Positions 1,393 to 6,921 of a stretch of 64,000 bases of DNA are shown here, piece by piece. The DNA is from a virus, in the IMG/VR virus record IMGVR_UViG_3300010399_000032. The stretch is one strand, 5' to 3'. Each line of letters begins with the position of its first letter. The stretch's first letter is position 1. The notes below the pieces were generated by a model. The model did not search any database. It was not told where the DNA came from and saw only the letters and a list, made by a program, of their open reading frames with translations. The position numbers and the translations under genes were made by a program.

Positions 1393-2067
1393 CTACCAAA
1401 CCTTTTCCATGTGACCGTTCAGGAATTCTTTCACTCGACATGTTTTACCTGTTATATGATTAGTTACACGGTCATTTTGAAATTGGATGGTAATAATTTT
1501 GTCTCCCCGTTCACCTGAACCCAATTTGTCCTTTTTATCTTTTGCACGTATTTCAGAAACATTTCTTTCCTCCTGGCGTGCGATTCTGGCCGCCAGCGCA
1601 ATTCGTGCATCACGTTCATTATTGGCCCGGCTACGAGATTGACGCGATTCTGACATTCCTGTGACTGGATCTGTAACCCGGACAGAATTCTGGGATTTAT
1701 TCCTATGTTGCCCACCTGCTCCGGTACCGGAGAAGAAAACACATTCAAAGCGAGAGGATATGTTTTCAATTGGGAGAAAGGATGGACTCGCTTCATTTAA
1801 ACATGCAACCGTTACGGTGGAGGTATGGACCCGACCTTTGCGCTCAGTTGGTGGCACTCGCTGAATTCGGATACCACCATTTTGGTTATCAAGGAGCGAT
1901 AAATCTTTTCCATCAAAAGATAATATTACACCTCTCCCCGCAGGGAGTCAAGTGATTTCCCAACCCTGGAGAAAAGCCAATTTCTCATAGGCTTTTGCTA
2001 GGTCAGTTACGAATAATTCCGAATCTTTACCACCTTCAGCCGGCAGGATGTGTACTGTACGTTTCAT
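1393..2067 (-). CDS. RF1-type peptide chain release factor homologue lacking domain 1, with an in-frame UGA at codon 40 (1948-1950)
   Basis: ATG 2067 gives MKRTVHILPAEGGKDSELFVTDLAKAYEKLAFLQGWEIT*LPAG...GGIRIQRVPPTERKGRVHTSTVTVA...SGTGAGGQHRNK; PxT and GGQ motifs; both sides of the TGA are in one frame and RF-like; gene ends in TAG. Confidence 0.88.
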
Positions 2068-2258
2068 ATATCACCTATTCTAAATGTAAGTTGATCCCGA
2101 ATATCTCCAATTAGCAAACGTTGCCTTACCATATAAGCGCTTTGACCTGGTGGTTTCTCCGACCCATTATAATAACTTCCAAAAAATATGTTCCGTAGGG
2201 AATCAACATCCTTAGCCGGTTTTGTTATTTTGGTTCTAACGCTTGTCGGTTTGTGCAT
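2064..2258 (-). CDS. Small hypothetical protein
   Basis: Open frame; stop overlaps the release-factor ATG (ATGA coupling). Confidence 0.5.
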   Translation of the reverse strand: MHKPTSVRTKITKPAKDVDSLRNIFFGSYYNGSEKPPGQSAYMVRQRLLIGDIRDQLTFRIGDI

Positions 2259-2603
2259 CTGCTTTTATTTTAATGGCCCATTGTACCAAACCTGTATCAT
2301 ATTTCATGTTAATTAAACTGGCAAGGGTATAATAGATCATATATTGTTTGGCATCTACTATAGTTTTAGTTCGCTTAAGACCATTTGTTATTTCAAAATG
2401 AACAGATTGCATAATTCTATAGCCCTTGTCTGGGGTTATCAGGTTCCAAACTGCGGGAGGGCTCTCCGAATGCTTGACTACGGGCATCGGCCTTATAGAA
2501 GCGTGATTCCGATGCTTCTACCCACCGTGGCCAAATCTTTAGCGAGGCGGCCCACCTCGGATAACTTATATCCATAATGTTAGTAACCTCGCTTTATAAA
2601 AGA

Positions 2604-2697
2604 TGGTGCGCCGACCTGGGCTCGAACCAGGGATGCTCTCCAATCGGGAGACTATGCCGATTATAAGTCGGGTGTTTTACCACTAAACTATCAGCGC
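2604..2697 (-). tRNA. tRNA-Ile(UAU) with a 24-nt variable arm
   Basis: Acceptor GCGCTGA/TCGGCGC, loop CT TAT AA, V-stem TCTCC/GGAGA, TTCGA loop, CCA. Confidence 0.85.
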
Positions 2698-2698
2698 G

Positions 2699-2789
2699 TA
2701 ACGGGTATGGGATTCGAACCCATGACCTTCTTTCTCAGAAGGGTACCGGCTTATGAGACCGGTGAGGTAGACCACTCCTCAAACCCGCA
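2699..2789 (-). tRNA. Initiator-like tRNA(CAU) with a 22-nt variable arm; CCA not encoded
   Basis: U1xU72 mismatch, A11:U24 pair, loop CT CAT AA, V-stem CCTTCT/AGAAGG; 1 nt from the next tRNA. Confidence 0.8.
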
Positions 2790-2816
2790 ACTATGACTGG
2801 ATTTCTCCAGAATTTA

Positions 2817-2892
2817 TGGTGCGCGAGGTGGGGGTTGAACCCACGCTACTTAGTTCCTAAGACTAATGACTCTACCATTGGTCTACTCGCGC
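2817..2892 (-). tRNA. tRNA-Leu(UAG), short variable loop
   Basis: Anticodon arm TTAGT-CT TAG GA-ACTAA, A73, CCA. Confidence 0.88.
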
Positions 2893-2896
2893 AAAC

Positions 2897-2971
2897 TGGT
2901 ACCTCTCAGGGGGATCGAACCCACTATGCACGGTTCCACAGACCGCGGTTCTACCATTGAACTAGAGAGGC
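2897..2971 (-). tRNA. tRNA-His(GUG), alphaproteobacterial type
   Basis: Loop CT GTG GA; G1:U72, A73, T rather than G at -1. Confidence 0.9.
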
Positions 2972-3148
2972 ATCTTTAATGTATCGTTTATGGATTTTAG
3001 TTCGAAGTGAACTTTTAAGGGCCATATCCAATTGACCTATGTCTATGTTCCAGGCCTCATAATCCCATTCGAGTTGATTTTCTACTTTATCAAGAAATCT
3101 ATTATAATAGAATCCCTTGGGATATAAAACTCTTGATACTTGTTTCAT
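2951..3148 (-). CDS. Small hypothetical protein (MKQVSRVL...)
   Basis: Fills the spacer between tRNA-Thr and tRNA-His; shared N-terminal motif. Confidence 0.45.
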   Translation of the reverse strand: MKQVSRVLYPKGFYYNRFLDKVENQLEWDYEAWNIDIGQLDMALKSSLRTKIHKRYIKDASLVQW

Positions 3149-5095: not shown

Positions 5096-5478
5096 TTAAC
5101 TGAAATGTTCGGAATGACCGTCTCGGGGCGCCATACAACCGAATAGTGATATGGATCGGCCTGATCAGGTGCAATCTGTTCAATCATATATGTAACATTA
5201 TCGGATAAACCAAGGAAATCCTTGACATAGGTATTATCACCAGTTTTACAAGTAATTGTAACCTCTTTATCCTTATCGTTATTTCCTCGCGAACACAATC
5301 CAGTAATAACGAGCATGTCCTGCCCGGTGATGCCATTATAGAAAGTAATCTTGCGTTCAACCTTGAAATAATCCGCATCCGTAGAAATATTGGCCGATGC
5401 AACATCGGCTGACGAACTACAAGCGGCCAAACTTACAACCAAACCTAAGGCACCCAATGCCACTGTCAACTTATTCAT
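5092..5478 (-). CDS. Putative lipoprotein
   Basis: Lipobox LAAC after a hydrophobic signal; AAGGA SD. Confidence 0.75.
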   Translation of the reverse strand: MNKLTVALGALGLVVSLAACSSSADVASANISTDADYFKVERKITFYNGITGQDMLVITGLCSRGNNDKDKEVTITCKTGDNTYVKDFLGLSDNVTYMIEQIAPDQADPYHYSVVWRPETVIPNISVK

Positions 5479-5494
5479 TATCTATCCTTGTTAA

Positions 5495-5572
5495 TGGTGA
5501 CCCATGGGGGATTCGAACCCCCGCACGACGGTTTTAGAGACCGCTGGTATAACCAACACTACCAGATGGGTC
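5495..5572 (-). tRNA. Amber suppressor tRNA (anticodon CUA)
   Basis: Acceptor GACCCAT/ATGGGTC, D-stem GGTA/TACC, GCGGT-CT CTA AA-ACCGT, T-arm GGGGG-TTCGAAT-CCCCC, ACCA. Confidence 0.88.
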
Positions 5573-5579
5573 TCCGTTT

Positions 5580-5786
5580 TCACGTATAGAGGAGGTTCCA
5601 GTGCATAGGCACCGAGGTGTCCTTCTCAAAAAGCTGCTCAAAATCCAAAGCGGTCTTGGGCACCTTCTTTTTCTTAATACCCTTGGACCATGTTGCCTTC
5701 ACTATCGTCCAACCCTGACGGTTGGCATATTGCTGGGCTTCCAGGAGGTTCATTCCCTCGGGGCACTTATAGACTTGCATTTTCAT
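5580..5786 (-). CDS. Hypothetical protein
   Basis: Open frame with AAGGA SD. Confidence 0.55.
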   Translation of the reverse strand: MKMQVYKCPEGMNLLEAQQYANRQGWTIVKATWSKGIKKKKVPKTALDFEQLFEKDTSVPMHWNLLYT

Positions 5787-6006
5787 CCTTCATTTCATCG
5801 ATACAAGCTTCTACCATGGTTACATAATCGAATCGTTGATTTGGTAACCTATCAACCATTTCCAAAATCCAGACATTAGCTGGTGAAAATGGTCCGGGAA
5901 TTTCTGAATTAAGCACAGAAATTCCCTTAATTATTGCGCGATAATCTCCCGGTGTATTCGGACCTAATCGCCGAACAGTTACAGGTTGATCTTTCACAAA
6001 TCGCAT
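5767..6006 (-). CDS. Hypothetical protein
   Basis: GAGGA SD, open frame. Confidence 0.6.
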   Translation of the reverse strand: MRFVKDQPVTVRRLGPNTPGDYRAIIKGISVLNSEIPGPFSPANVWILEMVDRLPNQRFDYVTMVEACIDEMKDENASL

Positions 6007-6013
6007 ATCGTCC

Positions 6014-6673
6014 TCAATGGGTTAATAATTCGTAATGAAGGAACTCATCACGTTTATTCCATAGTATAGGATGAAATGCGAGCCCTGTCAACCTATTTTC
6101 CAGATCGGATTCCCTAAAGGTAACAAAGGGTTGCCCTGGATGGTTCTGAGAGACCTCGATTAATTCCTTTTCATCCTTGACACCGATCCATTGGAAATAG
6201 GTATGGTGCGGATCAACTCTCATATCTTTCAGGTAATGACCGAGAACAAATGCAACATGTGCGCCTTGCACTCCTTGCTGTTCCGTGGTCAAACCTTCTT
6301 GAGTCGTGAAATAATACACATACTTGCGCCCTAACTTATCCACCCTCAGATGGCGAGCATAGGACATAAATTCTTGCTGTTCTTTCTCATCTAAAATGGT
6401 CTCCACGGGGAGATTCAGAATGTGAGTCAGCTTAAACCATTTCGAATTGGCTCGCTTCACAAATTGTTCTATGGAGGGATATTTAGAACCACCGCGTAGG
6501 TTGGGTGTGAAATTTTTCTGGAGAATGGAGGCGACTATATCCTCACCTGGCACATTCCTCAGATTTTTGGCACTCATTGCGATCAGAATTGCGCGCTCAA
6601 TAAAGTGCCAAGCCGTAAGTTGTTTATTGTTTGCCAGTAACTTCCACTGGGTCTTGAATAGGTCTTTGTTCAT
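6014..6673 (-). CDS. Protein with a C-terminal peptidyl-tRNA hydrolase type 2 (Pth2)-like domain
   Basis: YVYYF...QQGVQGAHVA...FRESDLENRLTGLAFHP resembles the Pth2 pattern (Q-x-x-H-A; F-x-E-x-D; T-x-x-A); recognised by eye. Confidence 0.7.
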   Translation of the reverse strand: MNKDLFKTQWKLLANNKQLTAWHFIERAILIAMSAKNLRNVPGEDIVASILQKNFTPNLRGGSKYPSIEQFVKRANSKWFKLTHILNLPVETILDEKEQQEFMSYARHLRVDKLGRKYVYYFTTQEGLTTEQQGVQGAHVAFVLGHYLKDMRVDPHHTYFQWIGVKDEKELIEVSQNHPGQPFVTFRESDLENRLTGLAFHPILWNKRDEFLHYELLTH

Positions 6674-6768
6674 TTTTAAGTCCTTAATGTTTCATAGTTT
6701 GTTGTTAGTTCTCATAATATAGACTAACATTAAGGTGGTTTAAAAATTCTCTAACGTGGATCGACCAT
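6674..6768 (-). promoter_or_regulatory. Putative UAG-read-through translational switch upstream of the Pth2-like gene
   Basis: ATG GTC GAT CCA CGT TAG AGA ATT TTT AAA CCA CCT TAA; 10-bp stem CCTTAATGTT/AACATTAAGG covering the SD; competing stem TGTTAGT/ACTAACA. Confidence 0.65.
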
Positions 6769-6921
6769 ATTGTCCTCTTTGATGATATCTTTCTTTTTCA
6801 AACCGGCTCCCCAACCAACTCGCATGGCTTTTTGGAAACCAATCTTAAATGGTTCCCAGGTTGAATTGAGGGACCGGCGAATACGCCGGCGAGTATAGTC
6901 CGAATAATCTTTCTTACTCAT
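6751..6921 (-). CDS. 56-aa basic ORF ending in the TAG of the putative switch
   Basis: MSKKDYSDYTRRRIRR...KEDNMVDPR*, AGGA SD; an internal GAGGA-ATG start at 6768 is in the same frame. Confidence 0.55.
   Translation of the reverse strand: MSKKDYSDYTRRRIRRSLNSTWEPFKIGFQKAMRVGWGAGLKKKDIIKEDNMVDPR

Follow-up and report, generated by a model that had tools for sequence, protein, structure and literature searches.

Two probable stop-codon read-through switches, separately inherited, among the tRNA genes of a T4-like soil phage

The DNA described here is a stretch of 64,000 nucleotides (nt) of the IMG/VR virus record IMGVR_UViG_3300010399_000032; the whole of it is called the window and all coordinates are window positions. 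All long open reading frames (ORFs) of the window are on the minus strand, and ARAGORN called 29 transfer RNA (tRNA) genes in it, the majority of them within 787-14640. In this tRNA region lie two genes whose expression would depend on the reading of a stop codon as sense. One is for a shortened RF1-type release factor and is interrupted by an in-frame TGA, the other is for a protein with a Pth2 fold and is preceded by a short leader that contains a TAG, and downstream of the latter there is a gene for a tRNA with the anticodon CUA. The phage is a T4-like soil phage that uses the standard genetic code. Its family-B DNA polymerase (22356-24911) is 47% identical to the enzymes of T4-like Synechococcus phages, with none closer among 50,697 phage records, and megablast of the window against cultured phages gave no match. 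Near-identical copies of the examined stretch are present in soil metagenome contigs from several studies.

That the phage otherwise uses the standard code, as the first-pass annotation of this DNA had assumed, is borne out by its stop codons. The 94 non-overlapping ORFs of the window close under translation table 11, with TAA in 53, TGA in 34 and TAG in seven, and many of the TGA-ended ORFs do so in ATGA start-stop overlaps. Many genes with in-frame TAG or TGA, the mark of a phage recoded to code 15 or 4, were not found in the window; the only interrupted gene seen in the 64 kb is the release-factor (RF) gene. A comparison of coding density under codes 11, 4 and 15 was dropped in favour of stop-codon usage because coverage rises with any stop that is removed.

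The RF gene and the elements within it are the following.

1393-2067, minus strand: gene for a domain-1-less RF1-type release factor, 224 codons with one in-frame TGA and with PPT and GGQ motifs
1948-1950, minus strand: the in-frame TGA, codon 40 of the translation, context ACT TGA C; the gate of the RF1-like gene
1934-1947, minus strand: hairpin CTCCC-TGCG-GGGAG directly 3' of the TGA, from a local fold (z -0.96), of uncertain relevance

An RF1-type gene broken by one in-frame UGA and ending in UAG is thus present as it had been described, its terminal TAG being at 1393-1395. The gene's ATG overlaps with the TGA at which the upstream ORF (2064-2258) ends; this ORF is in a separate frame and encodes 64 amino acids. 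When the TGA was read as tryptophan, Pfam matches were obtained to PCRF at 52.6 bits (cut-off 24) and to RF-1 at 51.5 bits (cut-off 35); the PCRF match (profile positions 104-194) spans the TGA and the RF-1 domain comes after it. With NCBIfam the product scored 146 bits for RF1, 57 for RF2 and 39 for PrfH. The RF1 score is below the full-length equivalog cut-off of 400, and the profile was aligned over positions 108-334 of 347; since the alignment starts at profile position 108, domain 1 is missing. The GGQ motif lies in GAGGQHRNK and its residues G118, G119 and Q120 are invariant in the alignment of homologues, and the PxT-type tripeptide lies within RVPPTERKGRVHTS with P72, P73 and T74 nearly invariant. 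According to the codon-specificity rule, a PxT tripeptide is that of RF1, which reads UAA and UAG, and SPF is that of RF2; the tripeptide was reportedly linked to release-factor codon specificity by Ito et al. in 2000. Going by its tripeptide, the RF1-like protein should release at UAA and UAG and should not read its own UGA gate. The AlphaFold model of the protein, made with 16 sequences, superposes on ribosome-bound RF1 with a template modelling (TM) score of 0.87-0.89 at 32% identity, and in this model residues 2-41, the TGA position included, form a strand, a helix and a strand of domain 2. Because the part before the stop lies inside domain 2 and so belongs to the fold, the model predicts that only the read-through product can be functional.

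Relatives of the RF gene were collected with their DNA by pattern scans, which gave 80 IMG/VR loci of 253 matches and 80 metagenome loci of at least 582, extending up to 10 kb on either side of the gene. Of the 155 loci with an alignable N-terminus, 154 contain a single in-frame stop, which is TGA in every case, and together with two loci at contig ends that have the same G-TGA this makes 156 of 157 relatives that keep the TGA. The sole exception, L153, is divergent and has no tryptophan at the site. In every locus the reading frame is the same before and after the TGA, and no +1 frameshift is needed. In a MAFFT alignment of 128 unique proteins the TGA falls in one column in 125, after a glycine codon and at the tryptophan site of RF1. 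The remaining three, those of the window, L081 and L131, belong to a single clade (support 0.73) in which that column holds TGG and the TGA is 4 codons downstream. The gate has therefore moved once by 4 codons and was retained, and that a TGA is relocated yet kept speaks for selection on the stop as such. In 129 unique contexts the TGA is followed by A in 97, C in 18, G in 14 and T in none. In soil contigs of four further studies the RF gene keeps its TGA and differs by 6 synonymous and 3 non-synonymous changes; judging by these changes, the gene is under purifying selection among strains. The terminal UAG, which the first-pass annotation had counted as part of the design, did not prove to be a conserved feature, as the relatives end in TAA (71), TGA (8) or TAG (1).

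As to what surrounds the gate, no tRNA with the anticodon UCA or UUA was found among the 1265 tRNAs in the RF loci, and RNAalifold on 50 sequences gave no consensus structure 3' of the TGA. Compared with other windows of the gene, the stretch of 45 nt that follows the TGA has the more stable fold (-10.4 vs -7.4 kcal/mol), with a median percentile of 0.20 and 32% in the lowest decile, in a sample of related sequences that are not independent; this bias in fold stability is only suggestive of a structure 3' of the TGA. Insertion of selenocysteine at the UGA was set aside, as no conserved hairpin was found and the site is a tryptophan position. As a separate observation, of the 23 unique phage tRNA-Trp(CCA) genes near the RF1-like genes (L001-L160) the majority seem to have a U11-A24 pair in the D stem. 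This is reportedly the pair that is made by the Hirsh UGA-suppressor mutation G24A of E. coli, and in these phage tRNAs it may be ordinary.

In the protein database there are more than 1400 relatives of the RF protein. Those on short contigs have 222-226 amino acids with W at the TGA site and those on long contigs have 166-192 amino acids and start past the TGA site. The full-length calls on short contigs, with their W, probably come from the TGA=Trp model of the gene caller, and the internal UGA explains the fragmentary gene calls for this family on long contigs. When the family was searched with tblastn against the phage collection all matches were at or below 36% identity, so that this collection has no cultured-phage member above 36%; many of the matches are unannotated short records named for Listeria, Staphylococcus or Salmonella phages, and others are metagenomic huge phages. 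Scans of IMG/VR with the single sequence found no relatives.

About 4 kb from the RF gene and on the same strand are the second gene and its leader.

6730-6768, minus strand: leader mini-ORF, ATG GTC GAT CCA CGT TAG AGA ATT TTT AAA CCA CCT TAA, as read in the sequence
6682-6735, minus strand: hairpin that hides the Shine-Dalgarno (SD) sequence, from the minimum free energy (MFE) fold
6014-6673, minus strand: gene for a 219-amino-acid protein with an N-terminal helical domain (about residues 1-110) and a C-terminal Pth2-fold domain (residues 114-217), from an AlphaFold model and homologues
5495-5572, minus strand: tRNA with anticodon CUA, of the amber suppressor type, called by ARAGORN; G1-C72, A73, short variable arm, encoded CCA

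The UAG-containing leader and the SD-hiding hairpin before the 6014-6673 gene are present as they had been described. The leader is preceded by an SD-like AAGAGGA (6773-6779) and its peptide would be M-V-D-P-R-UAG-R-I-F-K-P-P-UAA, with the TAG at 6751-6753 and the TAA at 6730-6732. The 5' arm of the hairpin, CCTTAATGTT (6726-6735), consists of the last proline codon, the TAA and 4 nt, and the 3' arm, AACATTAAGG (6682-6691), contains the SD AAGG, which is 8 nt before the ATG at 6673. The strain variants found in soil contigs show no change in the TAG or TAA of the leader, in its FKPP codons or in either arm of the hairpin.

The same upstream design was found in three IMG/VR relatives, which represent two lineages: after an SD-like sequence comes a mini-ORF only a few codons long, whose TAG is followed by (R)-I/V-F-K-P-P and another stop, and this stop region is joined by a hairpin to the SD of the gene. 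A DNA pattern for TAG-V-F-K-P-P-stop matched 19 IMG/VR stretches, which are 8 distinct leader-type loci and one repeated non-coding element. The leader is present in eight further phage lineages (L161, L162, L164, L166, L169, L170, L177 and L181), or nine with the window. The nine leaders read M(0-8 residues)-UAG-VFKPP-stop with the F-K-P-P core in 9/9; the mini-ORFs of the relatives have 1-9 codons before the TAG, and the peptide is kept while its codons vary (GTT/GTA, TTC/TTT, AAA/AAG, CCN). In all nine loci the MFE fold pairs the region of the last proline and stop with the SD region by 8-11 bp, and the sequences of the arms differ. A tRNA(CUA) is on the same strand within 41-1158 nt in seven of the nine, so the tie between the UAG arm and the phage's own suppressor tRNA that had been proposed held up in most of these loci. 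Three of the leaders have two UAG codons (L164:11042-11089, L170:149-193 and L181:1623-1661), one example being ML*SNFKPP*VFKPP* with stops as asterisks. In L164 the whole x-x-F-K-P-P unit is duplicated, so that a ribosome would have to pass two UAG codons by suppression before it came to the last Pro-Pro-stop. Within the loci examined, about 2 Mb in all, the motif occurs solely upstream of Pth2-fold genes. Control patterns gave no leader layout and no suppressor tRNA, the one with TGA for TAG having 7 unrelated matches and the one with TAA matching only the repeat element and one other sequence. The repeat element is a non-coding stretch of about 100 nt that contains TA[AG]GTATTTAAGCCACC[CT]TAA and occurs in dozens of phage contigs of 80-180 kb (L167, L168, L172-L176, L178-L180 and L193-L231, from IMG/VR sample 3300045988 and a few others). 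It has no ORF after it and no suppressor tRNA nearby, and is a chance match to the leader pattern.

The gene behind the leader had been called Pth2-like, and this assignment holds at the level of the fold, as judged from the model. The AlphaFold model of the 219-amino-acid protein has a predicted local distance difference test (pLDDT) value of 90. Its residues 114-217 match 1wn2 with a Z score of 13.6 and a root-mean-square deviation of 2.0 A over 104 residues, far ahead of the unrelated structures that come next, and Foldseek matched 2zv3, 3erj, 1q7s and 1xty with probability 1.0 and TM scores of 0.66-0.71 normalised to the target. For the N-terminal residues 1-110 there was no convincing structural match, the best Z score being 5.3. 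We found 14 homologues, in the alignment of which H139, E188, D190 and T196 are invariant or nearly so. A profile of the 14 gave only noise against PDB sequences, and a scan of GTDB genomes for the family gave no match. Among strain variants of the gene 4/4 changes are synonymous. In L164, L170, L177 and L181 the leader is followed by an ORF of about 100 amino acids and then by a small PTH2-type gene, for which the Pfam score is 30.9 bits in L177 (cut-off 23), 16.2 in L164 and 15.7 in L170 (both below the cut-off), with no match in L181; the tRNA(CUA) comes after the small gene in L164, L170 and L177. The window, L161 and L162 have a single protein of 219-240 amino acids instead of these two, and with hhalign no relation was detected between the N-terminal domain of the 219-amino-acid protein and the ORF of about 100 amino acids.

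The tRNA(CUA) that had been proposed at 5495-5572 passes the Rfam threshold with 36.8 bits (gathering score 29), which is the weakest score in the tRNA array, and its anticodon loop is regular. The remaining features next to the switch are two small ORFs between the tRNA and the Pth2-fold gene and an ORF that runs into the leader.

5580-6006, minus strand: two small ORFs of 79 and 68 amino acids, without Pfam or PHROG match
6751-6921, minus strand: 56-codon ORF ending at the leader TAG, without Pfam or PHROG match

In L161 the two small ORFs are missing and the tRNA is 7 nt after the gene. The 56-codon ORF is either a real small gene or merely the frame that holds the mini-ORF. Directly upstream of the tRNA(CUA) on the plus-strand map there is an ORF (5092-5478, minus strand) for 128 amino acids with a signal-peptide- or lipoprotein-like N-terminus, which matches Pfam Phage_VG64, the Mycobacterium phage VG64 family, with an E value of 5.6e-47.

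Both gates are far from chance. The first-pass annotation had named sense codons at the UGA and the lack of a conserved leader as the outcome that would speak against it, and the opposite was found. The probable explanation, in our judgement, is that the tRNA region holds two independent translational switches, each of them opened by stop-codon read-through. As background, UAG is read by RF1 only and UGA by RF2 only. In the first switch, which we call switch A, synthesis of the shortened RF1-type factor would require that the UGA at codon 40 be decoded as sense, most likely by near-cognate Trp-tRNA(CCA) in competition with RF2 of the host. Its output would be low and would go up when RF2 activity falls relative to Trp-tRNA. 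Since the protein has the determinants of RF1 (PPT) and would not read its own gate, a self-feedback in the manner of prfB is not expected. It is known that UGA is the leakiest stop codon and that E. coli, Salmonella and B. subtilis read it as tryptophan at a low rate, which prfB mutations raise (PMC7918605). In the second switch, switch B, the ribosome by default would stop at the UAG, 15 nt short of the hairpin, and the SD of the Pth2-fold gene would stay paired, this distance being judged too large for termination at the UAG to open the 5' arm. When tRNA(CUA) beats RF1 the ribosome would continue through R-I-F-K-P-P to the UAA, where termination after Pro-Pro would be slow; the paused ribosome would cover the 5' arm, the SD would be freed and the Pth2-fold protein would be made. 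A C-terminal Pro-Pro motif has been shown to interfere with termination and to arrest ribosomes (PMC3834316), and in the SecM and RAPP systems paused ribosomes are able to open SD-hiding hairpins (PMC10951233, PMC7897499). Candidate roles of the Pth2-fold enzyme are recycling of read-through peptidyl-tRNA and action on the suppressor tRNA itself. The switches may sense RF2 or RF1 levels, and they may have a role in timing or in counter-defence.

Several points weigh against this explanation. For switch B we infer the mechanism, with read-through, stalling and enzyme activity alike, from anatomy and conservation, and for switch A there is no demonstrated logic in making an RF1-type factor depend on a codon that is read by RF2. 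The folds of the AT-rich leaders are individually non-significant (z -0.3 to -2.1), the motif is (V/I)-F-K-P-P followed by a stop and not the R-A/G-P-P of known arrest peptides, and no tRNA(CUA) was found in the DNA examined of L162 and L181. The amino-acid identity of the window's tRNA(CUA) is not assignable by similarity, its nearest relative being another phage tRNA(CUA) at 74%. The 219-amino-acid protein has no match in Pfam (E <= 0.01, PF01981 included), PHROG or NCBIfam, and Q132/Q133 occupy the apparent place of the lysine of the Pth2 'GK' motif, in an alignment against the motif with the lysine where we take it to be.

The first-pass annotation had gone further and joined the RF1-like gene, the tRNA(CUA) and the UAG-gated Pth2 gene into one co-evolved circuit by which leakage at UGA and at UAG would be measured jointly. 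In this phage the three are within 5.5 kb and on one strand, RF1-type factors and tRNA(CUA) are known to compete for the same codon, and one RF-bearing phage record, that of L007, also contains a tRNA(CUA), together with a weak PTH2 match that at 18.8 bits stays under the cut-off of 23. The check on whether homologues of the three co-occur came out negative, however. The RF1-like gene is absent from five leader-bearing phage records, three of them complete with terminal repeats, in a search that was positive in 5/5 RF-bearing records, and neither the leader nor a Pth2-fold gene is in any of the other 160 RF loci. PF01981 matches were obtained in two of the five RF-bearing records and in neither of two complete ones, and a tRNA(CUA) is near the RF gene in just 3/80 IMG/VR loci. 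With the RF gene absent from the leader phages and the leader absent from the RF loci, the parts are inherited separately, and we conclude that they are two independent devices and not one conserved circuit; tRNA regions collect translation-related accessory genes in general, and the proximity in this phage reflects that. A single co-evolved circuit is accordingly doubtful. An antagonism within this phage is possible, in that the RF1-like protein could act against switch B by competing for the UAG. It is no less doubtful, as a general scheme, that the suppressor tRNAs of standard-code phages are dedicated activators of UAG-gated stalling leaders before Pth2-type genes with the UGA-gated RF1 as antagonist, a comparator in which the balance of RF2, RF1 and suppressor sets the output of the Pth2-type protein as a timing or counter-defence device.

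It is somewhat less unlikely, though we do not prefer it, that the UGA in the RF gene carries no information on RF2 and only throttles the dosage of a potentially harmful domain-1-less factor to about 1% of the capacity of its mRNA. The gate is early in the ORF, no conserved stimulatory structure was found for it, it uses the leakiest of the stop codons (PMC7918605), and it was shifted by 4 codons without loss, so it is not essential which residue stands there. The same could be had from a weak ribosome-binding site, however, and the near-universal internal stop in 128 unique sequences, together with the finding that T is never the base after the TGA, suggests more than that; throttling and sensing are moreover not mutually exclusive. 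That the phage switches late in infection to another code, with TGA as tryptophan or TAG as sense, and that the two genes are merely written in it, is highly improbable. It is true that recoded gut phages have 'code change modules' made up of suppressor tRNAs and release factors (bioRxiv 10.1101/2021.08.26.457843) and that TAG is rare as a terminator in the window (7/94 ORFs), but TGA ends 34/94 ORFs, often in ATGA overlaps, no tRNA(UCA) is present in any locus, no other interrupted gene was seen in the 64 kb, and after the leader UAG there are only 5-6 codons before a second stop, a layout that is regulatory and not coding. Least credible of all, to the point that we give it almost no weight, is that the RF gene has decayed to a pseudogene or was misassembled, and that the leader and hairpin arose by chance. 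Gene callers do split the RF gene and the database proteins on long contigs start past the TGA, but 156/157 relatives have exactly one stop, and it is always TGA, independent soil runs keep the TGA with mostly synonymous variation, and the leader is conserved in 9 lineages and was obtained from none of the control patterns.

A few other observations were made in the window. At 18508-19167 (minus strand) an 80-codon ORF ends in TAG and is followed by 90 open codons in the same frame, which include a possible separate ORF of 66 codons; because the second has a methionine of its own, this looks like two small ORFs in one frame, though it may instead be a read-through extension that is served by the tRNA(CUA). 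The tRNA-Ile(tat) and the adjoining tRNA-Met (2604-2789, minus strand) are 92-94 nt long, which is unusual for these types, and an extra tRNA at 9113-9183 (minus strand) has an Rfam match and is absent from the ARAGORN list. Between tRNA genes there are an ORF at 7076-7555 (minus strand) whose only Pfam matches, to an HNH endonuclease domain (E 0.0018) and an HTH domain, are weak and below threshold, and an ORF at 8109-8738 (minus strand) that by eye has a GIY-YIG-like motif at its start; the location of both would fit putative homing endonucleases.

Each part of the two switches has a likeness to a known system and differs from it. The closest to switch A is prfB, a release-factor gene that is also interrupted early by UGA, whose synthesis also needs a failure of RF2 and whose interruption is widely conserved (PMC12421855). 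In prfB, however, there is a +1 frameshift and the product reads its own gate in a negative feedback, whereas the phage gene would be read through in frame and encodes an RF1-type factor (PPT) without domain 1. The coat gene of phage Q-beta yields the A1 protein by read-through of UGA, and the likeness to this and to other leaky UGA codons is that low-frequency reading by Trp-tRNA gives a minor but required product, the UGA being at a tryptophan site in most relatives. There the read-through extends a finished protein, whereas here the UGA is inside a domain and only the read-through product would fold. PrfH (RF-H), the partner of RtcB, is likewise without domain 1 and resembles the phage protein in overall fold (9mor_A, TM 0.72), but the latter scores 38.7 bits against a TIGR03072 cut-off of 166.65, matches only over residues 106-190 and keeps the PxT tripeptide. 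No RtcB was noted among the ORFs nearest the RF gene, though no search aimed at RtcB was made. Switch B resembles SecM-secA, ApdA/ApdP/ApcA (RAPP/RGPP), ErmCL-ermC and YbeL-PP in having a short ORF that ends in Pro-Pro and where a pause would open an SD-hiding hairpin (PMC10951233, PMC7897499, PMC12992588, PMC3834316). It differs from these arrest peptides in that its stall site is reached only past an internal UAG, so that the input would be the phage suppressor tRNA against RF1 and not secretion status or an antibiotic. The protein that is controlled shares the fold of PTH2 (PF01981; archaeal Pth2 and human Bit1) over residues 114-217 and differs from it, besides the missing Pfam match, in its extra N-terminal helical domain of 110 residues. 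A tRNA(CUA) together with a phage release factor is also found in recoded phages (Lak, crAss-like, Jade, Agate) as the 'code change module', but those have many genes with in-frame stops and RF genes in the standard code, whereas here the stops are in one leader and in the RF gene itself. In the papers searched we found phage release factors and suppressor tRNAs only in the context of genome-wide recoding; neither phage RF1-type genes with an in-frame UGA nor leaders gated by UAG were described there.

The gate of the RF gene would be the second natural case, after prfB, in which the synthesis of a termination factor is wired to a failure of termination, and it differs from prfB both in working by read-through and in concerning the other factor. 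The UAG-FKPP leader would give the amber-suppressor tRNAs of standard-code phages a concrete and conserved target, and is a compact natural part, a translational switch that would be operated by a tRNA. Both devices are relevant to the question of how host translation is taken over by large phages that carry tRNA arrays.

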